From contig CM114271.1 of NCBI GenBank assembly GCA_050084515.1, positions 46,996,001-47,060,000 on the forward strand: DNA of 64,000 nt, written 5' to 3'. Origin of the DNA: Blasia pusilla (lineage: Eukaryota). The notes beneath the pieces were generated by a model, which was not told where the DNA came from, ran no database searches, and was given only the letters and a program-made list of their open reading frames with translations. Of the stretch, positions 1,101 through 64,000 are shown one piece after another (position 1 is the stretch's first letter; every line of letters starts with the position of its first letter). A program made the position numbers and the translations under genes.

Positions 1101-1364
1101 GAACTCCTAAGTCCAAATTATGGATTGGTTATTTACCAATCTACTGATGTTAGAAATATCCATAAAGCATCACAAGAAAACTAAAGTTAATGCATATTTT
1201 GCATTTCGATTAGTACAATAAAAATTAAGATGACTATTCTTCAAGACGTGTAATCTTCCCCATATATTCAACGACATCATTTCTTATATGTTCTATAATA
1301 GAATCATTTTACTCGTGGAACACAACCACGTGCATTGCCCATTCCTTAGTAATATAATGGCTTG

Positions 1365-2050
1365 TGTCACTTCTTTTAAGATAGATCACTGAGATCTAGT
1401 AGAGCGCCTTCGTGAGTAGTGGAGGACAGACTCAATAGGTGAAGGATGACTTGTTGAGGCCTCGGGAAACTTGAGAGAGCAGGTTTCCCCTTCATTTCGG
1501 CTCATTTGGAGCTATATTGTGAAACTTATTATTTTAGGTAAGTACCATTTTGAGCATATGTTTGATTTTCTATTTTTGGTAAGTGACCCTTGACCTCCTA
1601 CATCATGTCAAGAGCCAAGGAGGTGGCTTGGGAGCATATCTTACCATGGAGAGAGCTTGGGAGAGGGGAGGGGTATGCCTCAAGGAAAGAGAGTTTGAGA
1701 GCTCATTCTCTCTATGTCGAACCTCTTCGCATGAGGCTGCGGAGCTATGATCTTGCTTGCCTTGTGTGTGTAACCCAAGCCTCTCATTAGAAGAGTAGGT
1801 TTGGTTTGACATTGAGAGAGACATGTGCGAGTGCATACATGTGAGAACTATGGTGTTGTGAGATAAATTGGATCTTATTTTACAAAGAGATAATGAGCTC
1901 TCAAACTCTCTCTCCTTGAGGTATTGGAGATATTTTGGTACTTCTTGTCTCGTTGTTTGGATGCCATGAGTTAGCATGGGATCGTGCGGGTTTGTGTGTG
2001 TGTTCGTTGGCAGCCATGTATGTTGTGTAGCGATACGTATGCACATGACA
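1365..2050 (+). mobile_element. Non-coding A-B unit of the split-repeat Gypsy-like family (A 1365-1882, fold-back 1882-1922, B 1923-2050)
   Basis: TGTCAC...GCACATGACA ends with flanks CTTG/TTTG (4-bp TSD, 1 mismatch). Colinear with 29542-30394. Last ~128 bp match the B end of the element at 50923-51050. Confidence 0.85.
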
Positions 2051-2192
2051 TTTGTCATAAGATGCATGATTAACAAGTGAGACTGAAATCTTTCCTTCTT
2101 TGTTTCTTCATATATATGGATTTTACACTAGATTTAGATCCTTTATAGAGTATACACAATGTTATCTATTTTTAGATATTCATCCTAAAGAA

Positions 2193-3188
2193 TATCACAT
2201 CTTAGTTAACCATTGTGTAGAGTTCTATCGTATCAACGACGTAACAAGTTAGAAGGTCGTTCGAGCATATATTTATTTCGAGAAGTCTGTTATGCCCATA
2301 TACATTGTTGTCACCAAATATAATTCCATAAATAAAATATGTCATAATCACTCATGACATTTGAATAACAAAATAATTAAGTATAAAAATACCTCCAATA
2401 AATCAAAGATTACTCAAATCTCTCAAAAAATCTTCATCTCTCTCTCATGTCAAATCAAACTCATTCTCCTACTGAGAGGCTTGGATTACTTACAAGGCAA
2501 GGAGAACCATATCTCCGCCACCTCATGCCAAGAGGTTCAACAAACAGAGAATGAAATCAAAAGCTCTCTTTTATGGTATATACCTTCTCTTTCCCCCAAG
2601 CTCTCTCCACAATAACATGGGCTCGCAAGTTATCTCATTGGTTCTAGAACCACAATAGGGGGTCAAGGGTCACTTGTATAAGTAGTCAATTATGCTTATG
2701 TTAAAAACTTACCTCAAATGGTAGGTTCCTCAACATGAATCCAAATGAGCCAAAATAAATGAGAAACATATATCTCTCAAGGTATCATAGGCCTCAACAA
2801 GTCATCCTTGATCTCTTGAGCTTGTCCTTCAATCTCCTCGAAGGAAATCTACATATAGTTGTACATCCGTCTTAAAAGACATGACATCTCAGATGAAATT
2901 AGCGACTACTCGGTTGGATTAGGATTATCTTATAGTAAAATCCCTCTCTAGTGCTATTTGGGTTAGGTTATTAACATGTTGATCGATTCAAAAATCATCT
3001 GGTAAGTTGTGTGCGCACATTGCCAATATTGGGTTGTTTTAAGGGGAAGAGCCTTTTGGCTCTTCTTAGGGGTATATATGTGAGAGAGAGAAGGCTTCCA
3101 CAAGCCATTGTTATTATATTGAGCCTTTGTGAACATTCAGGCGTTTAGAATTTGTGTTTAGGGCGTAGCGATATGTATGTGTACAACA
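2193..3188 (+). mobile_element. Internally deleted unit of the same family (subfamily of 9521-11249), interrupted by a nested copy
   Basis: Starts TATCACATCTTAGTT (cf. TGTCACATCTTAGTT at 9521). Shares the TATA/GAGAGAGA/TTGAGCC block. Ends GTAGCGATATGTATGTGTACAACA. Flanks AGAA/ACAA. Confidence 0.7.
2288..2886 (-). mobile_element. Older A-B unit, inverted, nested in 2193-3188
   Basis: Reverse complement aligns with 1365-2050 (TGTCATGTCTTTTAAG...GGGCATAACA), with a direct A|B junction GATTTA|TTGGAG near 2400. Flanks AGTC/TCTC are each one change from the host sequence TGTC seen at the equivalent site near 9612. Confidence 0.75.
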
Positions 3189-14689: not shown

Positions 14690-16290
14690 ATCAATGACGC
14701 GACATTGCCTCACATATAACATTGGGTGCTGCCTTATACTCAACCTCTATTGAAGATAAAAAAAACTATAAGTTGCTTCTTAGAAGCTCAGCTTATATGT
14801 GTGCTTCCCGAAGTGAAGGAATAACTATAAGTAGAATATCTATTAATTAGACATGATTCCTATCCAATCAGCATATGTATATCTCTCCACTTATAAACTT
14901 AGAGAACCTTTAAATTTATGCCCAAACCGAACATAGAGTATCACATATTGCATAATCCTCCACACAACACCAATGTGAGGTTTGTGAAATGCTTGCATGA
15001 ATTGACTTATTAATCAAACTGCAAAGCTTAAGTCAAACCTAATTAAAGTTATACAAATCAAACTTCTAACCATGTGCTTGAACATATTGGAATTTGCAAG
15101 CAACTTTCCTTCATCCAATATTGTCTAACAACATAGATATTGGCTTACAAGTTGTTATACTATATTTTGAAAGCATATGAAGAGAATATTGTCATTATAA
15201 TAACCATATGTTGTGTCCAACCTTGATAAACTCAACACCAAGGAAGTAATTAAGTTCTCAAAATTCTTTCATATCAAATCTCTACCTATAACTTTAGCTC
15301 AATTTGTTGTACCATATCCTTAGAACTCACACTAATCAAGACGTTACCAACATATAATACAATGATAATTGTATGACCTTTTCTTCTGAAAATGTGTAGT
15401 GAGGAATCAAAACTATCGACCTTTATGTCAAACAAACTCTCGTAAGACATACATAATTTTGCCTTACTAAAATCTTGGAGCCTCGCTTGAATACATATCG
15501 AGCTTTCTTTAACATGCATATGCTTAATCCAAGTGGTTAAGCCGCGTATACTTCCTCGTGAAAATCTCCATTCAAGAAGATATATTTTAATATCCATGTG
15601 ATGTAGTCTTCATTTCTTATTCATTCTAATTGCAACTACTATTCTTGTAGTTGCCATCTTTGCAATGGGGCTAAATATCTTCTCATAGCCAATACCATAT
15701 TTTTTTTATAGCCTTAGATACCAAACTGGCTTTGTATTTGTTTATTGTACAATCTTGATTATATTTGACCTTGTAAACCCATCTAGATATATGATTAACA
15801 GTTTTCTTACCTTGAGGTATATTAACCAGCTCCTAACTCTATTCTTGTCTTAATGCAACAAGTTCTTCCTCCATATCTTCAATCTATCCGACCTTACATG
15901 CAACTTCATAAAAACAACTTGGTTTATGTTCTTCAAGGGCAATCATCACATATTCATAATGTATTGCAAGAAATCCTTCATTTATAAATTTATAAACAAG
16001 ATGTATAACTCCCATTGATCTACAAAGTTGTTGTTTAGAGGTATTATCCTCTAACATCTAACTTGAGCTCTGACTAGTATCAACAAATTGAACATGTATT
16101 CTTTCCGACCATGAATTGAAAAGTCCATGATCTTTTGTGACCTTGCACTAGTACTTGGAAATTTTGTAGGTACTGTCTATAGATTTATAGTCATTTTCTC
16201 AATCTCAATAGACATGATCATAAGTGGAATGAATTCAAATGGAGCATACAATGACTTCAACTTATAAAAAACAACATTGCAACAAATAAT
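14690..16290 (-). mobile_element. Decayed Ty1/Copia pol (end of integrase, RT, start of RNase H)
   Basis: Minus-strand fragments KYKASLVSK, YEKIFSPIAKMATTR, HHMDIK, VLYVGNVLI (YVDD equivalent) and LNYFLGVEF. Similar to 49621-50922. Confidence 0.85.
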
Positions 16291-19004: not shown

Positions 19005-19372
19005 TGTCATGACCATACGGATTATGTCGTAGAGTATGGTGTGCTGGTAGAGGCCATTCCTTATGTAGGACCGTAGTGGCTTGGTAGAGATGTGGTTCCA
19101 TACATAGGGTTGGGGGTTACTCACTTGGGGGTGACTTTCCTAGTAGGGCCCGCTCTTAGGTTGGAGGATATAAGGTGGCTTGCCCTCAAAGAACAATCAG
19201 TTCTTTGAGTTGAGCCTGTTGCGTTGGGAGTTAGCCTTGGTAGTGAGTAGAGCTCTTGGCTATGGTGTTTCCCGCAAGCTTCGACCTGGATTCTCCCATC
19301 GTGGAGTGGGTTTGGCTCGATTGTATGTGATTGTAAACGTGTTTTATGACAGTAGGTCTTTCACGGATTTCA
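19005..19372 (+). repeat. Repeat A1 (368 bp)
   Basis: Direct repeat of 28162-28529 with 3 substitutions by manual comparison. Confidence 0.95.
19169..19210 (+). promoter_or_regulatory. TATA box and predicted transcript 5' end within A
   Basis: TATAA at 19169-19173. CAGTTCTTTGAGT starts 29 nt later and is followed by TTGAGCC. The same spacing is seen at 9797/9828 and 29849/29878. Confidence 0.6.
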
Positions 19373-19384
19373 CTCAAAGAACTG
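19372..19384 (+). other. Putative self-priming primer-binding site
   Basis: ACTCAAAGAACTG directly after A1 is the exact reverse complement of 19198-19210. There is no TGG-starting tRNA PBS at this position. Confidence 0.75.
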
Positions 19385-20616
19385 GAGTAGATCGATGGTA
19401 GCTTCGATTGTAGATCAGTAGGATCTGGTCAGGGCTGATTGTGTACTCAGCCGTGGATGTTCGTGGCTTGTGGCCTATGTTGGAGGTGTGAATCTGGTGC
19501 GTAGTTGATTGAGAAAGAAGCGCCTTGCTGAGAGCTTTCCAACGCGCTGTAGATCGCCGGATTTCGTCAAGGGAGTTGGAAGTTATCAAGCATTGAAGAT
19601 TCTGGTTGTGTTCGACAGTTTTCTGATGTGGAGAGCTTGGAGTGCGGAAGCTCTGTTGAAGTTCATCCAGATCGGGTGAGAGGTTCCTATTGCTACTTGT
19701 ATTGTGATCTCATGTGAAGCTATCTGCTCGAGTGTGTGGAGCGTTGCGGATTTTTGCGTGCATGAAACTTGGCGGAAGCGCTGTCGGATTTGCGGTTCTA
19801 GAGGTGTATGGACAACAAGTTTGTCTGATTTTTAGCTCGGAGTACGGAGCTCAAAACCCTAAAGCGTTTTGAGGCTTCGAGGCAACTCGTGGTAGCTCGG
19901 GGCGAGTGGGCGTGAGAGGCGGAGTAAGGAGCAAGGAGCAAGCAAGCAAGCAAGCTTGCTTGCTTGGGCGTGAGGCAATTTTTGCAGGATTTGGGATTTG
20001 AGTTTTGCATAACTGGTCACCCATCTTTGGGCTATTCTGCCTGGAGGACGCTTAATTGCCGAGTTCTTAACTATGCCTTGCATGCATTGTTGTAGCTCAT
20101 TTGGTGTTGTTCGGAGATGTGTTAGGCGCTTTATGCATCTCAGGTTTTGGTTGATGTACCTCTAGCGCATAGTACGGTGTAGCCTCTCCATGCGGTGATA
20201 TTTTCAGGGTCTTTGCTGGCGTTCGACTAGCACGTCATCGACTGCGGCGGAGTAGCTAGCTATTTGCGTTAGAATTGTGTGGTGGGTTTTGTGGATTCAG
20301 AGGGCACCACGTTTGGTGGATTGTGTTACCTTGATTTCCATTTGCGATTGGAGGGTTGTCGTTGGATTTCTGTGTTTGGATCCCCTCCATCGTGCTTTTG
20401 CTTGCTTGGCGCCCATTGTTAGGGTTGACGCTGATTTCCAGAGTAGTGTTACTCCTGTGTGCTACCGGTAGTGAGGCTGGAGGGATGACGAGTAGATTGT
20501 GGGAGACTTCTTGTGGTGATGACAAGTTAGGTTGCCTACACCCATAGCTAGTAGAGCTAGAATAGTATAGCGACATCGACGTCACTTGGTAATTTGGTGG
20601 TGGTGCGGCATCGGCG

Positions 20617-22100
20617 TTGGTCATCACGGAGTCTGCCGGGTGGTCGGTTGGGGACCGTGGTGCGGACAGTGGTGGTTTCACACGGAGTGGATTTAGGTAT
20701 CGGCTACATTTTCCACTTCCGACGATTGATGAAGAGGAGGACGAGGGTGTTCCAAACACCGAGTCTTCTACGTTGTTATCGAGTGTTGCAGCTCCATTGA
20801 TTTGGGACATGGACGGTGGATATGGGGCCATGAAGGGCCCACGACGATACTCGGGTGCAGTGGGTACCATTGAGTTGGAGGACTTCATGCAGGAGTTTGA
20901 TACGTGGTGTGATATGCAGATGTTGCGGAACGCCACGTTGTTTACACCCTTCTTGGCTTGGAAGGGGTTGTTTCAGCACTTGGAAGGACCACCCATGGAT
21001 GATTACCATGAGTTTAGGAAGGACCATGTTGCTGAGATTGAGGCATGGAGACAATATTGGTCTCCAGGCTATGTGTCTATCACCCATGGTGGTATTGGTA
21101 GTAGTGCTCCTACTATGCCAGCCAGCCCGACGCTAAGTGGTACGAGTACGAGCCGAAGTGGGGGTACCAGTGGAGGTACTAGTGGGGGTACTAGTGGAGG
21201 TACTAGTGCCCCACCATCGTTTAGCCTGGTTTCAGAGTTCTTCAAGAGGTTGAAGAAGAACTATCAAGGAGTGAAGACGGAGAAGTTGAGGAATCTTCAG
21301 GACTTTGAGCGAAAGACTGGTGAGAGTCTTCGTGAGGCATACACGCGTATCGACGCTTGATTTCAGATTACCAGGGTGTGCGAGGATCGAGCGATCCGAT
21401 TTTGGTATGGGATCTTGGACAGAGATTTGCGCCGTAGGGTACGTGATGCTACTCTTATGAGTGATGATTCACCCACATTGACCCATGTGTTTGCTCTATC
21501 TGAGAAGATTGAGCTTAACATGGTGAAGGAGAGAGTGGTGACATCCGCATTCAGTAGGGATACAACTACTACTTCTCGTGTTCAGCCGCCCACCTCATAG
21601 TCTCGTAGTAGTGGTGGTGGTAGTAGTAGTGGGAGTCGTGGGGGGTACACGCGACCTCAGTCAAGTCCTAGAGGGACATTTGTGCAGAGACCATTGCCTT
21701 CATTTGCTGCCCCGCAGCAAGGACAGTCATGTTGGACATGTGGAGGTGATCATGTTAGGAAGTTTTGTCCCCAAGAGGATGGGAGACGGACTTTGGAGGA
21801 TGGGCCTCAGTCGGCCCTAACTCAGTGTGATCATTGCGGGAGACTAGATCATCCTCGAGAGCGTTGCTTTGATCTTCATCCAGAGTTGAGATCAGGCCGT
21901 GGCCGTGGTGGAGTAGCTCCGAGAGGCCGAGGTGGTAGAGGTGGTAGGGGTGGTAGAGGTGGACCGGTGGTTGGAGAGCCCACGGTGGCTACCCTACCTA
22001 CCTACGACGCAGTCGCCTATGGTCGCCAGATTGAGCAGATTGGAGCGAGTGGTTGGCTACTATGGTGGTATCCAAAGATAGATCAGGTTCGGGAGCAGGG
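20617..22100 (+). pseudogene. gag-like region, frameshifted
   Basis: ORFs 20617-21360, 21376-21600 and 21682+ carry a Gag-like FERKTGESLREAY motif, two zinc knuckles (CWTCGGDHVRKFC, CDHCGRLDHPRERC) and an RGG tract. Homologous to ORF 56705-58342. Start codon uncertain. Confidence 0.85.
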
Positions 22101-22649
22101 GCTTCCACCTCTTATGGAGGGGATGATCTCTCTTATATGGCGAGAAAAGACAAACGAGTTGAGGCATCACCGCAGCGATTCTGAGAGGAGCCACTCGAGC
22201 GTCGAGCCACGTGGTGCTCTTGTGGAGTTGGACCCGAGGGATGAGGCGGGGGAGGCGAGGCTAGGCTTCCCAGTCATTCTTGTTGTCCGAGGTGCTTACG
22301 ACTCCATCCATGGTTCCTACGTTGACCTATTGAGCGGCGGTGGGGATCGAGGTATCTACATCGCGTGTAGTAGACACGGATGCAACATCCAATGCAAGAT
22401 TGCGGATGGAAACTTCGGTGTTGGGATCCCCATTGTTTTGCCACGGAGTCGATGGCTTTAGGAGTTGACTTAGCTCTTGTATTTGATTAGCGACCACGTT
22501 ATGTGAACGTGGGGGTATTATGCTACACGTGTTGAGGTGGATGAGGGTGTTGCGGTGAGCGACCCTCTATGTCGGAGTAGCATTGAGTACCGGTGCTACT
22601 TGGCGGCAAAGGCGTCAAAGATGGATGCATTACCCCCCGCCAGCCATTG

Positions 22650-23110
22650 ATCGTGAGAGGCTTACACTGGTGTATGTATGTTGGACAACCGGAGTGGGAT
22701 CTTCCGATTGGTGAGTCCTACAAGACAAGTGTATGGACAGATAGAGTCTTGTTAGACTCGGTGCCCAACCTTGATGTTGGGAAAGGCGGCATGTATTGGT
22801 TTGGGTATTCGGAGGTCGAGCTTGAGCCTTGCCCATTCCGATTCAAACATCACTTGGAGGAGCCAATGATAGGTCTCAATTCATGACACGGGAAAAGTTT
22901 TTATGAGTTGAGACCGGATCATGCGATCGATAGCTCCCGGTTGGGAGTATCTGCGGTAGTCACATCACCGAGTCGTATGATGTACTAGTTGGAGGAGCGA
23001 TTGTACCCGATGGGTTTTCAGATGGATTCTTGGATGAGACAACGTCTTCTGAGACCTGGTTGGCAGTCCGGGATGGACGTATGAGCCAAGTTCTGTGAGA
23101 TTTATTTATG
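22650..23110 (+). pseudogene. Retropepsin-like aspartic protease, frameshifted
   Basis: RVLLDS(GA) at ~22743-22765, ELEPCPFR and ESYDVLVGG, matching the protease region of ORF 55475-56641. Confidence 0.75.
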
Positions 23111-23459
23111 GGGCTCGACCAGGAGGGTCTTCCCCAATGAGTGTTAGCATCTCGTGGGTGGTTTTAGTGGAGTAGTCACTTGGCTAGGAGACTTTTGGAG
23201 GGTAATGTTTCGCTATGGATTCTCCTGCGCATGAGGAGGTAGAGGAGGTCCCTATTTTTGCAGCAAAGTGGCATCCTCATCGTTGGATGTGCCACTTTGG
23301 AGTTCAGCGGTGCACTACGGCAAGAGGTTGATCGCCTAGTGCAGGAGGCTTGGTGTGAGGTGTTATACCTCACGAGGAAGAGGAGGCCCACGGCGGACTC
23401 CTACTTCGGTCCATTAGGTTATCCCTTTGGATACTACACCCATTGTATGGGCAAGTATC

Positions 23460-24410
23460 CGGAGGGTATTTGTGTGTTAGATCTCTTTGGTGGGATTAGC
23501 ACTGGTTTGGCTGCGATGTTGCAGGCCGGTATTCTGTCTTGGAGATACGTGTATGTGGAGCGAGATGAGACGGCCCATAGAGTCTCATCTCGACATATTG
23601 GTCGATTGATGTGAAGATACCATGAGTTGTTTCCGCCATCACTATTCGTGGGTACCGGCGTGCTTTACCATCACACATTGCATTGTTGAGGCGCGCAGGA
23701 CCTTGAGAGGGTTGGTCCTGTGGATTTGGTGATTCTTTGGATGGCCATGTCGAGGGTCATACACGTCTTTGGTCGTGGTGAGGGATTACATGACCCTAGG
23801 TCTCGATTGTTTTGGGAGATGTTACGGGTGTTACGACATCTTCAGTTCATCGCACGTGCTCTAGCTTACATTCGGAGAATGTTCCATTGTTGGATGACAC
23901 TCGGACCCGGATGATGGCGAGTGTTCATGAGGTGCGGTCTTGGATTGGACCAAGCGGTGTTGTTGGATGTTGAGTTGGCTCGCGTGCACATCGCCCACGC
24001 TTGTGGTGGACAAACTTGTTGCCTAGGGAGGTTCTACGTCGAGCATATGATGCGGTCTGGCGGGATCCTCGCCTTACAATGGATAGTATCTTGAATCTTG
24101 GCGACTTTCTCAAGTGGTGAGGGTTATTGATCGGTCACCCATGGTAGTGGTGAACCGTGTGGGCGACCTAGGATGGCACTACCCACATTTGTGAGTTTTC
24201 GCGTCACATGCCCACGGGGAAGGTGGTCCCGGGCTTGTATGGGATTCTCATGTGCGGCGGTTGGTGGAGCCTAACGCTGATGAGAGAGAGCGTGCGATGG
24301 GATTTACTCTTGGCGTGGCGGCGGTTGCTTCTATTTTTGAGGCTTCACGACGTCATGTGTTGGGTCAGGCCATGGACTGAATTGTTTGACTTGGATTTTG
24401 AGTCTTGGTA
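23460..24410 (+). pseudogene. C5 cytosine DNA methyltransferase domain (DNMT3-like) inside pol, frameshifted
   Basis: Motifs in canonical order: VLDLFGGISTG (23474-), YVYVERD, WPC (23742-23750), ENV (23875-23883), SRAHRPRLWWTN (23980-24015), ERERAMGF (~24285). Confidence 0.9.
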
Positions 24411-24779
24411 TGACCGAAGCGTCGACTTCGGGACTATGTCGTGGGTCTTCCATCCCTTGTAATGAGCTCGATGGCTCCGGACGGTAGAGGCATCGGTAGA
24501 GGCAGGAGAGTAGTATTTTGCATCCTTGGAGTAAATGGGATGTAATGGTGGGCATGTGGAGTTGGTTGCTCATCTTTGGTGGAGGAGTTATTTGCTCGGA
24601 TGATGGTGTAGCTAAGGGTGTACCATCTTGTGAGGGGGTTGCGTAGCGACCAATGGCATAAATCCTCTCCCTCTAGTATGCCGGTGGAGGAGACTTGGGA
24701 GCCATTACTTGGGCCCAAGCTTACGGGAGGTGAGAAACGACGCTGACCACGGTTCCTACGTGCTTATAGGAGTTGTTTT

Positions 24780-26130
24780 GCCTTTAGCATGAAGGAGTTG
24801 GGTTCTCTGGTTGGACCGGTATACATGGATTGATTTGGCTAGTGATACGCCAATCTTCCGTCGTCCCTATCGATATAGTGATATGGAGAGGACTTGATTG
24901 AGTAGGACGTTGGACCTTTTGGAGGTGGATTAGTGGAGTTGTCGCATGGAGAGTATGCATAAGCCTTTGTCATGCTCGCTAAAAAGGATATGCATGGCAA
25001 CTACGGATAGGCGGATGTGTGGAGATTACCGTCCTATCAATCGGCAAACCAAGGCCGATAGGTATGCCATGCCTACACTGAGGAGATCTTTGATGTGGTG
25101 GGACATGCAAAGATTTTCAGTATTTTGATCTTCGAGCAAGATACCATCAATTGCCGATTCGGGAGAGTGACAAGGCCAAGAGAGCATTTTGGGGTGTCAA
25201 CTCTCATGGCAAGGATTGTTTGTACCGGTGGAAATTCTTACCCTTTGGGTTGAAGAATGCACTGCCGAGTTTCAAAGAGTGATGGATAGGATCCTAGCAG
25301 GGTTGGATTTTGTTCGGTGTTACATTGATGATATCTTGGTGTTCAGTAACACGGTGGAGGAGCATCAGATACATTTGCAGATGGTGTTTGAGCGGTTGAA
25401 AGCTCATGGTCTACGTTTGGATCCAGGAAAGTGTAAGTTCTTCCATGAGGATGTTGAGTACTTGGGTCATGTGATCTATCCAGGTGGTTTGGGAGTTCAG
25501 CAAGCAAAGGTGGAGGCTATTGCACTTGTTCCGCGTCCGGTAGATGTGAGTAGAGTTCGAGCATTCATGGGATTGGCGAACTATTATCGGAGGTATGTGA
25601 AGGGATTTAGTGCTATGGCAAAGCCTTTGAACCAATTGCTGAAATCAGATCAAGAGTGGCACCGGGAGATGATCAGAGAGAGCTTTTGTGGAGCTTAAGG
25701 CCCAATTGGTGGTGGCGCCTATCTTGAGGAGACCTATCGAGGGCGCCCATTCGATTACACACCGATTGGAGTAGGTGGGACTTGGAGCGGTGTTGACACA
25801 ACATGATGATGAGCACATGGAGTTTGTGGTGGCCTATGCAAGTCGTTCGAATAATGCAATGGAGGCGCGCTATAGTTCATATGAGGGAGAGTGCTTGGCA
25901 AGAGTGTGGGGTGGGCACACTTTAGGTGTTACTTGTTTGGCACCCGGTTTACCCTTATTCGATCACCAACCGCTCAAGTGGTTGATGGAGTCGGACAAGC
26001 TTACTAAGAAGGTTTGCACGGTGGGCTCTTATCTTACAGGAGTATGACTTCCAGGTGGTACATAGACCTGGAGTTGCCAACCTTGATGCTGATGGGTTGA
26101 GTAGGAACCCATGTACTAGCCAAGAGGATA
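24780..26130 (+). pseudogene. Gypsy-type reverse transcriptase and RNase H, frameshifted
   Basis: RMCGDYRPIN, LPFGLKN, CYIDDILVFS, YLGHVI, FMGLANYYRRYV, GLGAVLTQ, VVAYASR, DHQPLKWL, DADGLSR. Confidence 0.93.
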
Positions 26131-26499
26131 CAACAGGGGCTAGATGGCATGGCGAGGTTGATGAGGAGATGGTGCCAGGTTGGCATGCATCCGCCTTTTT
26201 ATGTTGGTTAGGTGGACTCTAGTATGGAGGACCACATGATATCTTACTCTAGTCGAGGGTAGATGGCCACCTTGAGATCCTAAGGTTGGAGATGGTGGTA
26301 CGGATCAGCGTGATATTCATGATGATGCGTTGGTGTTGGAGTTCCTACGGACCGGTAGGGTGCCAGGCATAGTGAGTGCCAAGGAGCGAGACCGTGTTCT
26401 TCAACGTGCTAAGAGGTATCGATTGGAGGGAACACATATTCTCGCGTGTGGGAGGATGGTAGAGTATGAGTAGTGCCACATTTGGCTCGAGAGAGCGCG

Positions 26500-27330
26500 A
26501 TTGTGCGACATGCCCATGAGGAGTTGGGACATTTTGGGGTAAAGCGACGTATAGCTTACTCCTTGGCCAATATTGGTGGCGTGGCATGCATACTCAGTGC
26601 GGCTAGATTGGTGTCACGTTGTATGGTTTGTGACCGGTGAGGGCATCATTTAATGCCCCTACACCACAATTACACCCCTTGCCTATTATGGGGTTGGGTT
26701 ACCGTTGGAGTGTGGACTATGCGGGACCGTTATCGTTGGATCACGACATCATCGATATGTGTTGGTGATGGTGGAGCACTTCTCCAAGTGGATTGAGTTG
26801 GTGGCATTACCGGACAAGGCGAGTGAGGAACGGCGTATGCGTTTTGGATAGAGTGCTTAGTCATTTTGGTGCACCACGGTGAAGTGTTGACCGACCAGGT
26901 ACAAAGTTTGTGGTGAGTTTCAGGTCTTGTGTGACAAGGCGTTGATTGATCATCGGACCACGCGTCTTGAGATCATCCCAGGCGGATGGTTTGGCTGGCG
27001 TGTGGTTCAAACGGTGAAGAGGGCATTGCGCAAGTATGGCCTCTGAAGGGCATCTTGGAGACTGGGATATTCGTTGCCATGGTTAGCCATGGGGTATAGG
27101 TTCGATCGCCAAGCATCCTTGGCTTCCTTCTCACCTTATTTTTCGTTTATACGGCCGAGATCGGACTTGCCAAGATCAATTGCGTCGGGAGTCTAGTGAG
27201 GTGGTGAACCTTGATGACCAGAGATGTGGATGAGGGTGTGTTCTCGCGAGTGGAGCTCTTCGGAGAGTTATGCCAGCGACCTTTGAGAATCTTGCCATTG
27301 CTCAACACGGGGATACGTTGCGGTATGCAG
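26500..27330 (+). pseudogene. DDE integrase, frameshifted
   Basis: HEELGHFG...CMVC zinc finger, WSVDYAGP, VEHFSKWIE, VLTD, HP.ADGL, SFSPYF..YGR. Confidence 0.88.
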
Positions 27331-27739
27331 GTTATCGACCATCGATTCGTAGGTTCCATGTGGGGACCATTTGGGTGGAGGTTATCGACCATCGTGTTAG
27401 CTTCGAGGTTCCATGTTGGGGGACTATGTCTGTTTGGAAGGACCATGTGCGTAATTGTGCGCCATGTCATCTTCCAAATGGATGGATGTATTGACCCAAG
27501 CTTAGCCATTTTAGCTTGAGGTGCATGGTGTTAACGCAGGAGTTCTCTATGTCTATTTGGAGACAACGTTTGACGGAGGCACTATTTTGTTCGTGAGGTG
27601 TTAGTTTGGAGTTCTCATGTTGGAGGGTCGTGATGGAGTTGTTTGGAAGGACCATGTGCGTAATTGTGCGCCATGTCATCTTCCAAATGTGGATGGTATC
27701 TTGTTGACCCAAGCTTAGCCATGATACGTGCTAGCTTGA

Positions 27740-27882
27740 GGTGCATGTTTGTGGGTCTCTGTGTAACGCACCCGTATGTTGTGTGTGATCGGTGTTCTAG
27801 GGGTTGGCACATGATGTGTTTGACTCCACGTTTGGATGTTGTTCCATCTACTTGGAAGGTGGGTTTGTCCTCGATGTACTTA
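27740..27882 (+). pseudogene. PHD finger at the C-terminus of pol
   Basis: RCM...VCDRCSRGWHMMCLTPRLDVVP...CPRC, matching the intact C4HC3 finger at 51240-51374. Confidence 0.8.
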
Positions 27883-28044
27883 GGAGAGGTAGATGACTTG
27901 ATCTTTGCATGATATGGATTACGGATGTGCGACTAACGATGGGGCAACCTAGCACCCGGCCTTCGATTCGGGCATCCAAGAAGGTGTATAGCATGTAGTA
28001 GATGTATAGGGCTACCCGGGAGTTAGAGGGACCTAACCGCCGAT

Positions 28045-28053
28045 TAGGGGGCG
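28045..28053 (+). other. PPT-like G tract immediately before B1
   Basis: TAGGGGGCG. The same TAGGGGGGCG motif precedes B at 11110-11119 and at 51051-51060 (minus strand). Confidence 0.65.
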
Positions 28054-28158
28054 AGTTGTGGTACACTTGCATTTGTGGATACTCGTCTATGTTATGTATG
28101 TATGTGCGTATGGTATGTCGGCGATGTATGTTGTATGGCGATGTGGATTCATACGACA
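28054..28158 (+). repeat. Repeat B1 (105 bp)
   Basis: Direct repeat of 28529-28635 (about 6 transitions and one 2-bp indel). Ends GACA and is followed by ATT and then A2. Confidence 0.92.
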
Positions 28159-28161
28159 ATT

Positions 28162-28529
28162 TATCATGACCATACGGATTATGTCGTAGAGTATGGTGTG
28201 CTGGTAGAGGCCATTCCTTATGTAGGACCGTAGTGGCTTGGTAGAGATGTGGTTCCATACATAGGGTTGGGGGTTACTCACTTGGGGGTGACTTTCCTAG
28301 TAGGGCCCGCTCTTAGGTTGGAGGATATAAGGTGGCTTGCCCTCAAAGAATAGTCAGTTCTTTGAGTTGAGCCTGTTGCGTTGGGAGTTAGCCTTGGTAG
28401 TGAGTAGAGCTCTTGGCTATGGTGTTTCCCGCAAGCTTCGACCTGGATTCTCCCATCGTGGAGTGGGTTTGGCTCGATTGTATGTGATTGTAAACGTGTT
28501 TTATGACAGTAGGTCTTTCACGGATTTCA
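28162..28529 (+). repeat. Repeat A2 (368 bp)
   Basis: Copy of 19005-19372. Begins TATCAT instead of TGTCAT. Confidence 0.95.
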
Positions 28530-28635
28530 GTTGTGGTACACTTGCGTTTGTGGATACTCTCGTCTATGTTATGTATGTATGTGCGTATGGTATGTCAGCG
28601 ATGTATGTTGTATGACAATGTGGATTCGCACGACA
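28529..28635 (+). repeat. Repeat B2 (107 bp)
   Basis: Joined directly to A2 (GGATTTCA|GTTGTGG). Ends CGCACGACA, followed by the TSD. Confidence 0.92.
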
Positions 28636-29541: not shown

Positions 29542-30394
<853 letters not shown>

Positions 30395-50922: not shown

Positions 50923-51233
50923 TGTCGTGCGCATACACATCGCTACACAACATACATCGCTGTCATCGAACACACACAAAAATACACACGATCCCATGCT
51001 AACTCATGGCATTCATACACAGAGGCGAGAAGTACCAAAATATCTCCAATCGCCCCCCTAGCCGGTGGTTAGCCTCTAACTCCAGATAGCCATCTATCCC
51101 TACCTACCACGACATACATCTCTAGGACGCTAAGAGCAAAAAAGCGGGGTGCTCATGTGGCCCCATCGTTAGTCGCCTTCCTATCAACCATATCACATAA
51201 AAAGTTGGAATCGAAACCTATCTAGTATCTCCT

Positions 51234-52500
51234 CTATGTACATCTGGGACACATCCATCGTCCCCGAGGAACCTTGGTGAGAGGTGGCGTTAGACATGCC
51301 ATATGCCAACCTCTCGAACATCCATCACAGACTAGCATCGTGGCCGCACAATGAGCAGAACCACACAATATACAACGCAAGCCTGTAGGAACTACTGTTG
51401 AGCTCGGATCTATTGTACCATCAATGTTAGGAAGGTGACATGGCGCACAATTACGCACATGGTCCTTCCATACCATACCATCGTGTCCCTCCAGCAAGAG
51501 AACACTGGATGGCAAAACGTCACGCACTCTCAAGATAGTGCATCCTGCAGTCACTTCCAACGTTGTCGATGCCGTTTGCTACAAGTAGACATAATCTCCT
51601 TGATGAAACCTCCGGATAGTCGGTCAATAACCACCACCTCGAATAGTTGCATACCTCAATGTATCTCGATGCTGAGCAATCGCCAAGTTCTCGAACGCCA
51701 TGGGCATCACTCTCCGAAACAACTCAGTCCTCTGAGAACATGCTCGCATCCATACATCTGGGTCATCAAGGTCCAGCAACTCACCAACATCTCGACGAAT
51801 GGCCGCAAGTAAATCTGGCTCTTGGCCATAAAGTAGCAAGTACGGTGAAAAAGACGCTAAGGATGCATGCCTGCTGAATCTCTATCCCATCGCCAACCAT
51901 AGCAATTGGAGGTCCCAATCTCCTAGGTGACCTCTCTGCAAGCCATACTTGCGTAAACTCCTCTTCACCGTCTGCACGACTCTCTCTGCCAATCCATTTG
52001 CCTCGAGTTGATCTCGCGAAGTCGTGCGGTGGTCGATCAGCGCCTAATCACACAAGGCGTGGAACTCACCGCGAAACTCGATACCCTGGCCTATCAATAC
52101 CTTAGTCGGTACGCCATAATGACTCAACACTCTCTCAAGGAAGGCATAAGCTACTCCCTCACTCGCTTTGTCAGGCAATGCAACCAACTCGATCCAGTTC
52201 GAGAAGTGCTCGACCATCATCAACATATAACGACTGTGACGCTCCGTCAAAGGCAAAAGTCCTGCAAAATCCAAACTCCATCTATACCCTAAGCCCATGA
52301 TAGGTAATGGATGCAACTGTGGAGTCGAAGCATTGAATGATGCTCGGACCGGATCACACACCATGCACCTTGCAAAAAATTGCTGAACGTCAGTCTGCAT
52401 GCCTTGCCACCAATACTAAATCTGGAGCAAGCTGTACGTCCGCTTCACCCCAAAGTGACCCAACTCCTCGTGGGCATGCTGCACTAGTCATGCTCTCTCC
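51234..52500 (-). pseudogene. DDE integrase with C-terminal PHD finger
   Basis: ORFs 52044-52400 (WSLDFAG, VEHFSNWIE), 51624-51839 and 51234-51560 (CILC...CDGCSRGWHMACLTPPLTKVPRGRWMCPRC). Confidence 0.92.
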
Positions 52501-52839
52501 GAAGGATGCGGCACTACGCGTACTCTGCCATCCTCCCAAACCCTCAAAACATGTGTCCCCTCCCAACGAAACCGTCTTGCCCGTTATAGGATCCGATCCC
52601 GCTCTCTAGCACCCACGGTGCTCATAACGCTGCCAGTACAAAGGTACTCCAAGACTACTCCATCATCATGAATATCTTGGCCACCTGTCGTCTCCTCACT
52701 GGCCTCGGGATCCAAGGACTCTCCACTAGACCTCGCCATCGAAGTCTCCATACTCTGGCTCTCCATAGTCAACGTGCCTAAATAGGCTGACGCATGCCAT
52801 CCTAGCACTGACTCCTCATCACTCTCTCCATGCCATCGA

Positions 52840-54150
52840 GCTCCAGTCGCATCTAGCTGACTTGGGCATGGGTTACGACTTAATCCATCTGCATCCTTGT
52901 TGAGCGTCCCAGGTATATGTACCACATGAAAATCATACTCCTGCAACAACAGAGCCCATCTCGCAAGCTTTCTTGTAAGCTTTTCGGACTCCATCATCCA
53001 CTTCAGTGGTTGATGATCAATGATGATGGTAAAGGGGTTGCCAAATAAGTAACATCTGAAATGCACGACAGCCCACACTACAGCCAAGCACTCACCCTCA
53101 TACAAGCTGTACTTCGCCTCTGCAGCGTTGTTCGAGCGGCTAGCTTAAGCCACCACGAACTCTCTACCCTCATTATCATGCTGGGTGAGCAACGCTCCAA
53201 GCCCCAACATGCTCCAATTTGTGTGCAACTGGAAAGGACGCCCGTTTATCGGTCTCCTAAAGATGGGAGCAGACGTCAACCTGTCCTTGAGCAATTGAAA
53301 TACTCGCTCCTGCTCATCTCCCCATTGCCACTTGTGATCCACCTTGGTCAACAAGGTCAGCGGCTTTGCAATCGAACAGAATCCCTTGACGTACCCCCGA
53401 TAGAAGTTTGCCAATCCCATGAATGCGCGAACACGGCTCACATCTGTGGGGCGTGGAATGCGTGAGATAGCCTCTACCTTCGTCTGCTGAACACCAAGGC
53501 CCCCTAGGTATATCGTATGACCCAAGTACTCAATCTGGTCGTAGAAGAGCTTGCACTTGCCTAGATGTAGCTTCAGCCCAAGTAATTGCAATCGTCAAAA
53601 CACCTCCTCTAGATGTCGCTCAAGCTTCTCAACCGTGGCGCTAAAGACTGCGATGTCATCAATATAACACCTAGCAAAATCCAGACTAGCCACTGGTATA
53701 AACAATCCTTCCCGTGAGGATCGATGCCCCAAAATGCCGTCTTCTGCCTGTCCTCCAATCTGATAGGCAGCTGATGGTATTCGGCTCAAATCCAATGAAC
53801 TGAAAACCTTTGCGTGACCAATCACATCAAAGATCTCCTTAGAGGTGGGCATGGCATACTTATCAGACTTTGTTTGCCAATTGATAGGTCGGTAATCCCC
53901 ACACATCCGCCTATTCGTCTAGTTGCCATGCACATCCTTCTTGGCGAGCATGATCGTGGCAGATGCATACTCCCCATGCGACATCTCCACTAGTCCTGCT
54001 TCGACCAAAACCTGGCTCCTACTTTGAATCAGAGCCCTCTCCATATCACTGTACTTGTAGGGTCGTCGAAATATTGGCGTATCACTCAACAACTCAATGC
54101 GGATCCGCGGTCCCTTCAGCGTACCCAAATCCTCCATGCTAAATGCAAAG
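52840..54150 (-). pseudogene. Gypsy-type RT and RNase H with stops, frameshifts and a deletion
   Basis: MCGDYRPIN, CYIDDI, YLGHTI, FMGLANFYR, LGALLTQ, ECLAVVWAVVHFRCYL, DHQPLKW, DADGLSR. Confidence 0.93.
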
Positions 54151-54569
54151 CAACTCCTATAACTCTTGAGGAATTGATGTATTCGGTGCCGCTCTCCTCC
54201 TATCAACTTAGGGCCCATATCTGGCTCCCAAGTCTCCATCGTGACTACGGTAGGACTCTCCGGCGCGGATATCGGTGGTTGCTATGGTGCAACCCCATCT
54301 CAAACAATAACACTCGACCACTCTCCTGCAGCCAAGTGCAAACTCTGATCTCCTCCACATGCAGTGCCCTGAACTACGCTCGATGCTATAGCTATCATCT
54401 CCTAGCGTACCTGCAAAACATCCCCAAGAAGTCCAAGGATGTCTCTCCCGATCTCCCTTGGTGTGTCGATCTCCTCGGGTATCGCCCCCAGCCACTGCCT
54501 CCATCGTCTCGGTAGGCATGGGGCTCACCAACGCAACCGTTGTGATCTGTCGCGATCTCATCCGACTTT

Positions 54570-55550
54570 GCTCAGCCACTCCCAAGCTGAAGATCCATGT
54601 CAAGAAGTTCAGGTCCATCGCCTGAACCAAGACATGGCGTTGTGATGCCTCTAATACTGACGGTACTGCCATCACTCCTGTGGGAAATCCCATCGCCCGC
54701 TCTCTCTCGTCGGCGTTGGGCTCCACCAACCTCTGAACACGATCATCCCAAACCAAGCCAGGATCGGCCTCCTTGTATGCATAGGAAGCGGAAAAAGTCA
54801 CAAACGTGGGAAAGGTTGCTTGCGGCTTGCCTACCTTGTTGACCACACTCAACGGTGGTCGATCATCGTGCCTCACTATCTCTGAGCGACGACCTGGATC
54901 CAGAATGGAATCCATTAACAAATGAGAGGGGCGCTCCACTCTTGCATACGCCCTCCGTAACATCGCATGGGGCACCAAGTTGGTCCACCATAGACGCGGG
55001 CAATGGGCTCTAGAACCTACACTCGCCGCATCCAAGAACACTAAAGGGCTGATCTAGGCACGCACCTGATGAGCACTCATCACCACCTGTGACCTAGAGT
55101 CTCTTAAGATCCGCACATTCTCCAGAATTTAGGTTGGAGAACGAGACTGGTGCTCCTGCAACTGCCCTAAGACCCTCAACATCTCCCAAAACAACCTGGA
55201 CCGAGTGTCAGCCAACACTCGATTGGCCTTGACTGCCTCGTCCAACACTCGATTGGCCCTGACATGGCCAATCGGAAATGACCAAATTAGTGGTCCCTAC
55301 CCGCTCTAAGTCCTGCGCCCCAAGCAACAAAATATCCCTTGATAGGGAACTCTAGTACCCCTGTACCGCGGACGCAGATAATAAGTCACGAAAATGTAAG
55401 CGTAACTGCGCCACATGTCGTAGTGAGACGCACCTTGCAACATCATCCCTCTCCACATACAGGTACTGCTGTATTCACACTCTTGCCTGCAAAACAACAG
55501 CTAACCCGGTGCTAATCCCTCCAAAGAGATCTAACACTTGAATACCCTCC
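54570..55550 (-). pseudogene. DNMT3-like cytosine methyltransferase domain inside pol
   Basis: VLDLFGGISTG (~55505-55537), YLYVERD, WPCQG (catalytic Cys codon 55262-55264), ENV (55114-55122), SRAHCPRLWWTN, ERERAMGFP...QRHVLVQAM. Confidence 0.92.
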
Positions 55551-56641
55551 TCCGAGGTACACCACACAATGGGTGTGGTATCAAAGGGTGTCATCGTAGC
55601 ATTCCCTGCTACCTCCGATTCCTCAGACCCGTCACGCTTCGGTGCAAACGCCTCGCTCCACGCGGTCTGCACGTGCTCATCTGCCAATCGTCGAAGCTCC
55701 TCAATCGAGCCCCATAGCGGCACCTCTCCTCCACAGAATGATGCGATTACCATAACACTCCTCTCCATAGAAATATCAGGAACGGGAGTATCCTGTACAT
55801 GGACATGTCCCTCAATCAAATCACTAGGCCAAGTGATGGCACTGCTAAATGGTGCTAAGGTCGCCATCTCTCCTGGTCGTTGCTCGATCACTACACCTGT
55901 GAATCGAATGGGTAATGAGCTAAGGTGCCCATCACCTGACTGCCATCCTGGTGTGTAGGACGTTGACTGCTCCCAGTAATCCAGGGCAAACCCCATCGGA
56001 TATAACACTGCTCCACCAACCAAGATGTCGTAGGACTCTGCATCAGTCACTATCGCCTTGGCTCGCACCAGTGACTCATCTGTAGGACGTCCCAGGCCAA
56101 TCTTCACCATGACCTCCTGTCGGGTAATATACTGTGTGATACTCACTCCACCCAAGGATGTCTGTATTCGGAATGGACACAACTCTACATCGGCTCTTGT
56201 CAAGCCCAATCCTCTGAATGACGCTTTCCCCAACATCAGGGGTTGCGCTCCTAAATCCAACAAGACGCGCTGCGGACTGAAAGCTCTACCTTTGGGACTC
56301 ACGAACTGGAAGACCTCTCCTTGGTTATCCAAAAACATAACACCAGGAGAAGCCATGGTATGCTCTATCGCGGGTCTAGCGGACATCTGCGCCATCCTTG
56401 CAGCCGTAGCCTGCCATGAATCTGACGTGGACGGCCCGAGCATCCGCTCCAAGGGCAGGTCCATCACCTCCTCTGCAATAACCTTTGAACGTGATGCAAG
56501 AACTCCAACTCCACACTCACATAGCGTAGGGGCCAGCCAAAAAGCCTCGGCGGGCGTATCCCCAAACGTCATAACATCGAAAGCAGAAAATAAAGGAGCG
56601 CGGTACATAATGGTGGCCGCCCCCAACAACGTGCTTGACAC
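55551..56641 (-). pseudogene. pol N-terminus with retropepsin-like protease, in frame with DNMT motif I
   Basis: ORF 55475-56641 contains RVLLDLGAQPLMLG and YDILVGG, and runs without a break into IQVLDLFGGISTG. Confidence 0.85.
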
Positions 56642-56704
56642 ATGCCCCTCCTAAGCATCAACAATAGGAGTCGTCGTACTTGCTTCTCCCATCCCCCTCC
56701 GTTC

Positions 56705-58342
56705 CTACACACCAAGAACATCACCAACTCTCCAGGAACTCTGATCAGGACCCATCAATAGGGTCCTCATCGCCTCAGACAACGTGAAAGAATGAGGAAG
56801 CCTAGTCTGTTTCTTGGCATCCCCTTGATGTGGATCCAACTCTGCGGCTGCTCCACGCGTCACAACTATGGCTGCCTCCATCTGGGCAACCCCGCACATC
56901 CAACCAGGATCCTCCAGATCTCTGGCTGCTCCATATGATGTCGATGCCACGGATCCGGCATCGGGTAACCTCAATGCCATAACGGCAATCTGCTCGTGTA
57001 GCTGCTGTATATGAGTAGCCATCCCAGCCTCACATCCAGCGTCTCCCTCGGCGCATCTAGATGGTGGTACTCTACCTCCTCCACGAGCAGGTCCACCATC
57101 GTGTTGGGAAACTCCAGCTCCTCGTCCCCCAACAGGACCACATGGTGCACGATCTCTAGGCCCACTCGGATCGTCTTCTCGCTCTGGTGCCCTCTTTGGC
57201 CCTCGGTCCGGACGTAACTCAAGATGTAAACTGAAATACTTGGCGCGTGTATGACCATACCTCTGACAATAATCACACTGATAACCTCCTGGTGCAGCAC
57301 CATCTCCTCCTCCATGCTGAGGCACACGTCCATGACCCTGACGAGTGCAATCGCGCTGATGATGGGCTCCACCACATGACCAACAAGTAATAGTAGGCGG
57401 CTGCTGTTGAGCCGCATATGAAGGCATGGCCCCCCAATATCCTCCCTGAGCTCGTGGTGCCACAGTCGACCTATCTCGGAGTCCACGTTGCTGCACATGT
57501 AGTGCAGGCAATCGTGATTGCTCTCGCCCAGAACCCATGGTGGCTACGCTCTCCTCCGCCATGTTGCGCTCAATGTTCTCGGTGGTCCTAAAAAAATCTC
57601 TCAATGTAGGGGAGGTGTTCATAAGAAGCACCCCTTCCCGCACTTGTGTCCGCAGGGTCCGGTCCAACATCGCGTACCATGACTGGATAGCCTGAGCCTC
57701 TATCACCCCCTGAGTGACGTTGATCAACCGGCGCAAGCGAGTGTAAGCCTCACGCAAACTCTCACCCGGGCGCCTCTGGAAGTCGTGGATGCTCCACAAC
57801 TTCTCCGTCCGTACCCCCTGGTTGCTCGCCCTCAACTCAGCAAATAACTCAACTACAGGGTTGAACCTGGGACGAACCCAACTAGACGGTGCAATTGCTC
57901 CCGTGCGAGTGACCCCTCCTAAAATGTCACTAGTGGAAGAGGAAGTAGCCTCTCCTGACTCCTCCTCCTCATCTGGGAACGGCTCCATCCATGACACATA
58001 ATGTGGGTCATAGTAGAGCCTCCACGCCTCGATTTCAGGTGCATATCTTTGAGAGAACTCATGGTAATCGTCCATGGGCTCCCTCTCTAAATGTTGGAAC
58101 ATACCGTTCCATGCTGTAAACAGGTTGAACTCTCTAGAGTTCCTGGCCCGCTGGGAGTCACACCAACTCCTAAACTCTGCCATGAAATCGTGCAACTCAA
58201 TCGTGCCTGCTACACCTGAAAACCTATGCGGTCCTCTACCCCGATCGTCCATCTCGTACGCCCAACTGGTAGGACCACTCACAATGTGTGGCGATGTGCT
58301 CACAAACTCCTCTACACGCTCCCCCTCGTCTGAAGACGACAC
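56705..58342 (-). CDS. Gag-like protein of the retroelement (545-aa open frame, start uncertain)
   Basis: FQRRPGESLREAY, zinc knuckles CWSCGGAHHQRDC and CDYCQRYGH. Homologous to 20617-22100. Confidence 0.8.
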   Translation of the reverse strand: MSSSDEGERVEEFVSTSPHIVSGPTSWAYEMDDRGRGPHRFSGVAGTIELHDFMAEFRSWCDSQRARNSREFNLFTAWNGMFQHLEREPMDDYHEFSQRYAPEIEAWRLYYDPHYVSWMEPFPDEEEESGEATSSSTSDILGGVTRTGAIAPSSWVRPRFNPVVELFAELRASNQGVRTEKLWSIHDFQRRPGESLREAYTRLRRLINVTQGVIEAQAIQSWYAMLDRTLRTQVREGVLLMNTSPTLRDFFRTTENIERNMAEESVATMGSGREQSRLPALHVQQRGLRDRSTVAPRAQGGYWGAMPSYAAQQQPPTITCWSCGGAHHQRDCTRQGHGRVPQHGGGDGAAPGGYQCDYCQRYGHTRAKYFSLHLELRPDRGPKRAPEREDDPSGPRDRAPCGPVGGRGAGVSQHDGGPARGGGRVPPSRCAEGDAGCEAGMATHIQQLHEQIAVMALRLPDAGSVASTSYGAARDLEDPGWMCGVAQMEAAIVVTRGAAAELDPHQGDAKKQTRLPHSFTLSEAMRTLLMGPDQSSWRVGDVLGV

Positions 58343-63446: not shown

Positions 63447-64000
63447 CTATATGGTTAAGAAGAGCATCTCGGTTAGCTCTTCCATTAGATATGGTTGCGT
63501 TCTTCGTACATAACTTTGAAATCCATGTGGATGAGGTCTTGCGGCCCTAAAAAGTGTATCTAGAGTATGATCTTGTCTATCAATCAAGATATTGTGAAAG
63601 ATACAACAAGCAACGATAATCTTTGGTAATCGCTCCAAGTTTTGATGATAAATGTGTCGATTTAGTATGCGCCATGTTCCTTTTAATCGTCCAAAATCTC
63701 TCTCCACACACATACGCATTGAAGAATGGAGATAATTCCATGCCTCTTTTTGACCACTTGCTCCAACATAAGGGACAATGAGCCAAGGTAATAACGGATG
63801 TCCTACGTCACCGATGATATACTCTCGAATGCTCTTGTCATATCTCAATGGAATTAGAGGACCAATCATATATCTTTCTCCTTGAATTTCTTTCTTATAT
63901 GATCCAGAGTTTTAGAGGAGTCGTGCATCATGAACACAAGGTGGATAACCTACAAATACATCTAAGAGGCGTAACTTTGAATCCACGACAACTTGCATTG
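63447..64000 (-). pseudogene. PIF/Harbinger DDE transposase, C-terminal part, continues beyond the window
   Basis: QVVVDS...GYPPCVHDARLL (~63915-63997). IIGDVGHPLLPWLIVPY, HSSMRMCVERDFGRLKGTWRIL, IIVACCIFHN in ORF 63447-63869. Confidence 0.9.

Follow-up and report, generated by a model that had tools for sequence, protein, structure and literature searches.

We interpret a 43-bp insert between the two repeats of a solo retrotransposon unit in Blasia pusilla as a snap-back scar, formed on a cDNA end that was unintegrated or just integrating, and put the probability of this reading at about 0.66. The unit lies near the start of the window (the whole stretch of 64,000 nucleotides that was analysed), and its parts are as follows.

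1361..1364, plus strand: left target-site duplication (TSD), one mismatch against the right copy
1365..1881, plus strand: repeat A, with the TG integrase end first, the promoter and the predicted R and U5, and a 3' end without CA
1674..1679, plus strand: predicted TATA-like box, about 28-31 nt upstream of the predicted start site
1675..1701, plus strand: presumed template for the 27-nt extension; lies upstream of the predicted start
1702..1717, plus strand: predicted self-primer, a 16-nt complement of the PBS
1882..1897, plus strand: PBS copy, equal to the retained primer complement
1898..1924, plus strand: inverted extension, reverse complement of 1675-1701, its final 2 nt common with B
1923..2050, plus strand: repeat B, opening with the base found directly after the PPT in full copies and closing with the CA integrase end
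2051..2054, plus strand: right TSD

The inverted match between 1675-1717 and 1882-1924 holds at 39 of 43 positions and stops sharply at either end. Chance can be ruled out as its origin: when the solo unit was shuffled 100 times, no inverted 43-mer exceeded 30 matches (mean of the best, 25.4), and in three solos without an insert the best reached only 26-28. The first-pass annotation had described this reverse complement, had placed it between A and B, and had it begin as the normal PBS and run about 28 nt further towards the TATA position; all of this was borne out, with A at 1365-1881, B at 1923-2050 and a 2-nt overlap of the insert with B. Nucleotides 1-16 of the insert are identical to the family PBS (window 30129-30144, and the leaders of loci L008-L030), and its last 27 nt are the inverted sequence from 1701 back to 1675, ending within the TATA-like box at 1674. 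The AT at 1923-1924, common to the end of the insert and the start of B, constitutes a 2-nt microhomology. That the 43 bp might simply be the normal leader of the subfamily, which the same annotation had raised against itself, is excluded: the PBS of full-length relatives continues into a different leader. Compared with six relatives, the insert has 1-2 differences and its forward template 3-4; the insert is thus nearer to the family state, so that most of the four mismatches postdate it and lie in the forward copy.

The family to which this unit belongs was surveyed across the searched genome (390 Mb, 26 contigs), where the first 20 bases of B have at least 3200 exact matches, a pattern that misses about a quarter of the copies. 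Its Pol follows the order reverse transcriptase, RNase H and DDE integrase (PF00078, PF17917/PF17919, PF17921 and PF00665), with a PHD finger (PF00628) after the integrase, where Pfam found no chromodomain. A C5 methyltransferase domain (PF00145), whose best solved relatives are DNMT3A structures (E=1.5e-8), was found in four of five internal-region pieces. Copies are laid out as A1-PBS-internal-PPT-B1-NN-A2-B2, such that TG starts A, CA closes B, and the B1/A2 boundary forms a CA-NN-TG palindrome with a 2-nt spacer. The PPT is therefore followed by B, palindrome, A2 and B2, and the left end of the element is A alone; the order of the Pol domains and the TG...CA ends with a short TSD are those of Ty3/gypsy elements, but there are not two complete LTRs with a PPT immediately before the last. 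Among 20 elements traced upstream, an A start could be located in 15, and their 4-bp TSD is perfect in 10, carries one mismatch in three and is missing in two. The palindromes of one spacer type number 226, and all 30 that were followed are preceded by a PPT; downstream, 27 of these run through A into B, three are rearranged and none enters a PBS. Divergence between B1 and B2 is about equal to that between A1 and A2, and subtype variants are common to B1 and B2, which indicates that B2 is normally copied from B1; separate inheritance of B2 could mostly be rejected, with L118, L122 and a second-family element in the window as exceptions.

Several further features of the family were observed. 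The palindrome spacer (L104-L133, L204-L233) is mainly AC, GT, GC or AT, variants that would be expected, judging from the sequences, if a single palindromic 6-mer were decaying through C-to-T changes in one strand or the other. Some copies (L069 and L090, two of the PPT-preceded B starts inspected, and the one at window position 50923) stop at B1 without A2-B2, as would result from a molecule with one LTR or from cleavage of both palindromes. Loci L134, L136, L139 and L141 form one subfamily with short tandem duplications of the 3' part of the PBS at the start of the leader, and at G000:C1:7357753-7359915 three A|B joints stand in tandem with a period of 1036 bp.

Under standard reverse transcription, the cDNA of such an element should be B-A-internal-B-A, with the first base of B and the last base of A as its ends. 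Joining the two ends of this molecule and opening it at the left palindrome gives the integrated form, and A|B is accordingly the joint of the cDNA ends, as had been proposed at the outset and as the PBS and PPT remnants found at A|B, of the type known from two-LTR circles, also indicate. Flush A|B joints number 1538 genome-wide (by a separate pattern), so that inserts at A|B are rare; 30 flush joints that were followed comprise 18 A2|B2 joints, eight solos, with a 4-bp TSD that is perfect in six and has one mismatch in two, and four that could not be placed. The first 100 B starts listed, counted by eye, follow the PPT in 48 cases, follow A flush or nearly flush in 46 and have another context in six, one of these with 4 nt of PBS and one with the PBS plus inverted upstream sequence. 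A strict pattern for short PBS-initiated A|B joints returned 13 genome-wide, which comprise trimmed or duplicated PBS, PBS with leader, PBS with a PPT remnant (two), self-hairpins and upstream-inverted sequence; at L109 a PPT remnant without PBS is found at A|B. The expectation that junction inserts would consistently be PBS-initiated reverse complements of variable length was therefore correct in part: the structure recurs and its length varies, but 46 of the 52 B starts that do not follow a PPT are flush or nearly so, and PBS sequence appears in only two of the other six.

The recurrence of the scar was examined with a pattern made of the A end, the PBS and the first inverted bases, which is blind to extensions shorter than 5 nt and gave 59 exact and 169 one-mismatch matches. 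All 59 exact matches, 11 of the 41 listed one-mismatch matches (those with an intact A end) and the window copy were inspected; three of the inspected matches proved to be ordinary A copies on the opposite strand and were dropped, leaving 68 loci. At least these 68 loci thus carry the PBS followed by an inverted copy of sequence upstream of the predicted start, over lengths from 21 to more than 350 nt, although at nine of the 68 the A end to the left of the PBS was not recognised by BLAST. In A coordinates, where the primer site lies at 338-353 and the TATA at 310, the inverted copies at the 68 examined loci end at 326 or above in 10 cases, at 314-325 in 18, at 303-313 in seven, at 11-302 in 15 and at 10 or below in 18. 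Thirty-five of the 68 extend past the TATA and 18 reach the A start, and the copies at L054, L160, L163 and L193 continue through the palindrome, B and the PPT into the internal region, something that a strong-stop hairpin cannot give and for which the template must have been the 3' end of an RNA or a plus strand of full length. Fifteen of the 68 examined are joined to B, 13 of them within its first 11 nt, a target for which we estimate a probability of about 0.2% if deletion ends fell at random over an element of 9.7 kb. One of these, L182 on another contig, is an independent twin of the window insert with the same stop base, joined to B through TAT. The remaining scars are joined to internal sequence on either strand or end at the inverted A start.

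The inserts at L041, L101 and L157 are pure self-hairpins and those at L091 and L236 are patchworks, and both kinds show snap-back synthesis at these ends. Loci L049 and L043 carry, between A and B, sequence resembling an unrolled hairpin, with the TSD intact or with one mismatch. An inverted A forms the right end of the element, stopping exactly at the first base of A, at L049 (where the TSD is perfect), L047, L058, L036 and L037. At L169 and L181 the scar stands at the 5' PBS with a flush A2|B2 and a perfect TSD, which points to the second strand-transfer step, and at L161 a scar in 5' context has likewise retained its TSD. Seventeen such 5'-context loci were followed, 14 of which are rearranged or of no clear structure, so that later chromosomal rearrangement contributes to the scar set.

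The template of the inverted copies was assessed with markers. A subfamily marker is the same in the inverted copy and the forward A at 18 of 19 loci (p=1.2e-4), which argues that the template was the same molecule or a close sibling. A second marker, which includes the T allele at 1690 of the window copy, shows no concordance across loci (p=0.57), and the common T allele was for this reason rejected as proof of same-molecule copying. Ranking own against other templates gave no significant result over 45 rows, about seven of them with a truncated own template (p=0.18), and eight of 24 long copies fall in the top tenth. The second marker, the rank test and the four copies that enter the internal region count against same-molecule copying, and for the window copy the T allele is uninformative on this point.

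The snap-back that we favour would have proceeded in several steps. Transcription would start at about 1702-1705, and the first 13-16 nt of the transcript would prime reverse transcription at the PBS, a step for which the complementarity is seen in the sequence and the priming is modelled on Tf1. Plus-strand synthesis would then, again by analogy with Tf1, run from B through A and copy the retained primer, giving a single-stranded 3' PBS tail; in Tf1 about 50% of the cDNA is reported to retain such a tail, which anneals to homologous DNA (PMC11042837). With self-priming, PBS and start site on one strand are necessarily complementary, and in folding a single plus strand does pair its PBS end with the start site. 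The tail would thus be able to anneal to its complement at the start site, 164 nt upstream on the same strand, or else to that sequence in a sibling sense strand, and would be extended upstream by 27 nt, by the reverse transcriptase or by a host end-joining polymerase; the product of this extension is present in the insert, and its template is presumably 1675-1701. The new 3' end would be released and joined to the first base of B through the AT microhomology seen in the sequence, before or after strand transfer, a course that resembles snap-back SD-MMEJ as described, in which annealing and short extension are followed by release and joining at a new microhomology (PMC5728401). Integrase would use the internal B-A CA-NN-TG instead of the cDNA ends, and the presumed cleavage there would yield the A...B ends and the 4-bp TSD, with the solo form arising by later A1-A2 recombination or by direct insertion. 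The template switch that the first-pass annotation named as an alternative is probably the route by which the joint arose, not a competitor of end-joining.

That the insert records self-priming, as first claimed, agrees with its start at the PBS and with the recurrence of the scar at variable length throughout the genome. As regards self-priming, the 16-nt PBS complement was found about 28 nt after the TATA-like box, with a predicted start site, and is paired in the folded RNA. Three raw RNA runs and one contig set with the same species label, possibly from another individual, contain mainly sense sequence that is mostly 90-95% alike; depth in the runs is lower over B2, and the same runs and contig set have no pile-ups of read starts or ends.

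Three other origins of the insert were weighed. Although unlikely, a long RNA primer from the 3' repeat deserves the most attention: the A2 primer copy of a genomic or read-through RNA would pair with the PBS and be cut as usual; its 5' portion would then include U3, B and internal sequence, into which the plus strand would copy a variable distance. The same junction would result, the common subfamily marker would be accounted for, as would the copies that traverse palindrome, B and PPT to reach internal sequence, and sense RNA does cover the region in the RNA runs searched; yet the long RNA must escape RNase H, the pure self-hairpin and patchwork inserts are left unexplained, and, as weaker evidence, the RNA reads have no listed strand-changing joints. 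Later chromosomal repair, in which a break in an integrated A1-PBS-internal segment would be resected to the PBS and followed by snap-back and a large deletion that by chance ended at B, we regard as quite improbable for this insert. The 16-nt inverted repeat is ideally suited to snap-back in any copy, many scar loci are rearranged, and L033, an apparent clean inversion of the segment between primer site and PBS, resembles inversion between two repeats, but the TSD is retained, and the 13 of 68 partners within the first 11 nt of B, together with the PBS and PPT remnants at the same joint, mark that joint as a cDNA end. Least probable is the form originally advanced, a 43-nt self-primer begun at an upstream start near the TATA and copied whole. 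In its favour, 35 of the 68 examined endpoints fall within a stretch of about 35 nt before the predicted start, the window copy and L182 independently have the same stop base, and Tf2 is reported to use alternative start sites (PMC5341516). On the other side, the endpoint of the window copy is located within the TATA-like box, where this promoter is unlikely to initiate, the remaining 33 of the 68 stop at more distant positions (18 of them reaching the A start), and AT/TAT microhomology with B also explains the common stop.

A longer primer from an upstream start cannot be the source of inverted copies whose ends lie beyond the TATA or outside A. The proposed longer-than-usual self-primer is hence at odds with the copies that extend past the TATA, with those that reach the A start and with the four that pass through B into the internal region, and it also misfits the scars at the 5' PBS of elements with a normal A2|B2; a long primer survives only in the form of the primer-sequence copy that an RNA carries in its 3' repeat.

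Beyond the snap-back reading of the single insert, the data bear on how the family integrates. End-joining of the cDNA ends at A|B is supported; the end-to-end circularisation suggested at the outset would go a step further, and a symmetric two-LTR circle cut at either palindrome is not supported, as the second permutation that it predicts is nearly absent. Such a circle should give both permutations about equally often. The arrangement PPT-B-palindrome-A is present in 539 of 943 PPT-B copies, a lower bound that misses mutated palindromes; for the second, A|B-palindrome-A-PBS, the palindrome pattern picked out 10 of 1538 A|B copies, only three of which are real and none of which reaches a PBS (one continues to B and two are truncated before the A end). 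One rearranged copy, in L020, has the order B end, A, PBS. From this permutation bias we argue that the left palindrome is engaged by integrase while the molecule is still asymmetric. Strand displacement, which would render the left LTR double-stranded much earlier than the right, could be the cause; the ends could be joined before or after strand transfer. The many such scars suggest a family that joins its cDNA ends and inserts through a cut site inside the terminal repeat. On balance we think it likely that in this Dnmt3-bearing gypsy lineage the att sites have come to lie within the LTR, that its integrase cuts the templated CA-NN-TG, almost always that of the left LTR, that the A|B joints of thousands of copies form a fossil library of reverse transcription end products, and that the 43-bp insert exposes a built-in hazard of self-priming. 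If the internal palindrome is indeed what is cut, each normal insertion depends on the joining of raw cDNA ends; the library of joints would then hold primer tails, PPT remnants and snap-back hairpins, and the hazard would be that of a PBS tail priming on its own start site.

The window contains other copies that bear on these points.

2250..2886, minus strand: older solo A|B of the same family as the unit at 1365-2050, with a flush joint 2400|2399; B end approximate
19005..28635, plus strand: decayed second-family element, A1-internal-PPT-B1-A2-B2, with a 4-bp TSD and a flush A2|B2 at 28529|28530
29542..30394, plus strand: same family as 1365-2050, A plus PBS and leader (insert 30129-30270) joined to the B start, with a perfect 4-bp TSD
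50923..59950, minus strand: same family, 5'-truncated internal region that stops at B1, without A2-B2

Both A|B joints cited for comparison in the first annotation, at 28529 and about 2400, are indeed flush, but 28529|28530 belongs to the second family, whose A (368 bp) is different from that of the 1365-2050 family, as is its PBS; the second-family element has its own self-complementary PBS at 19373-19384. Two of five pattern matches in the second family carry a PBS-initiated inverted scar, one at an A|B joint and one a full inverted A, and the other three are a normal leader variant. B1 (28055-28158) and B2 (28529-28635) of the window element are 92.5% alike and its A1 and A2 differ at 3 of 368 positions, and in L122 B1 and B2 differ at 22 of 128 and A1 and A2 at 6 of 488; to judge from these sequences, the B2 of L118, L122 and the second-family window element seems at times to have come from another molecule. 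Small inverted repeats lie upstream of or overlap the predicted start in both families (1678-1698 and 19185-19210), and many short inverted copies terminate in this start-proximal zone of inverted repeats. Four ORF pieces in the window of gag, protease or methylase origin had no match in Pfam or PDB. Elsewhere in the window, 14707-15665 and 49627-50602 are related fragments (69%), which by eye we take to be of copia-type reverse transcriptase/RNase H; an ORF piece at 63447-63911 (minus strand) presumably derives, by its look, from a Harbinger/PIF-type transposase; and an open frame of 409 aa at 42196-43425 (plus strand) is, on inspection by eye, probably a host gene exon with presumed GST-like and hemerythrin-like parts.

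Elements of the DIRS, PAT and Ngaro groups encode a tyrosine recombinase rather than a DDE integrase and as a rule lack TSDs. The present family has a DDE integrase (PF00665, PF17921) and 4-bp TSDs, which excludes it from these groups, and the stretch scanned had no match to a tyrosine recombinase; it is like PAT and Ngaro in the order A-coding-B-A-B, with an internal B-A junction that mirrors both ends (layout as in PMC5890265). Closest by published description is KnitGypsy-Dnmt3 of Klebsormidium nitens, reported to have Gypsy domains, a Dnmt3-like methyltransferase in Pol and repeats arranged as in DIRS, A-coding-B-A-B (PMC5890265); both the Dnmt3-like domain in Pol and this repeat order are found here. 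The available text of de Mendoza et al. (2018) on that element gives no mechanism, PBS, TSD, internal att palindrome, junction inserts or PHD (PMC5890265). Tf1 and Tf2 also have a PBS described as complementary to the 5' end of their RNA (PMC11042837, 10.1101/2022.12.06.519325, PMC5341516), the copying of a retained primer into a single-stranded 3' tail that anneals to homology is described as we propose it here (PMC11042837), and the plant Tcn1 clade has been grouped among the self-priming retrotransposons (PMC6317226). As these sources describe them, however, Tf1/Tf2 and Tcn1 have complete LTRs with CA directly before the PBS, unlike the present A, which lacks a terminal CA and leaves the att sequence inside the would-be LTR, and the portions available make no mention of an element folding back on its own start site.

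HIV-1 two-LTR junctions are similarly described as end-joined cDNA ends with PBS and PPT remnants (PMC9198661), and, as we propose for the one here, their CA-TG palindrome is cleavable internally by integrase, the tetrameric enzyme having been reported to do so in vitro (PMC1905944). In HIV the att ends and the end-joint coincide, with the circle as a by-product; here the palindrome is templated, has a 2-nt spacer and lies apart from the variable joint, and the joint is present in most integrated copies. SD-MMEJ by polymerase theta, as described, shares with the scar an inverted primer repeat, short synthesis, release and a new microhomology (PMC5728401), but here the primer repeat is 16 nt long, lies 164 nt from the end and is built in by self-priming, the extensions reach hundreds of bases, and the polymerase may be the reverse transcriptase. 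The literature searched, which covered few subscription journals, had no paper on the scar or on a mechanism for the layout; for the layout it yielded only the Klebsormidium legend (PMC5890265), and the accessible part of a preprint (10.64898/2026.05.21.726589) has no bearing on it. The ingredients of the scar have precedents, and the scar itself is rare but recurrent.

As the product of one rare error, the single 43-bp insert has mainly evidential value, and its interest is carried mostly by the mechanism of the family. Retroviral integration through an internal junction palindrome was, according to the text available, proposed in 1984 and dropped in favour of linear DNA, the accepted precursor (PMC11054761); the present family looks to use its junction palindrome routinely, and this would supply a mechanism for the repeat layout in Klebsormidium. 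LTR finders that require pairs of TG...CA LTRs would presumably miss such elements or set their bounds wrongly. The strong preference for one of two identical palindromes poses a testable question on the timing of intasome assembly, and the A|B joints make the end structures of cDNA, for which purified particles are normally needed, readable from a genome assembly.
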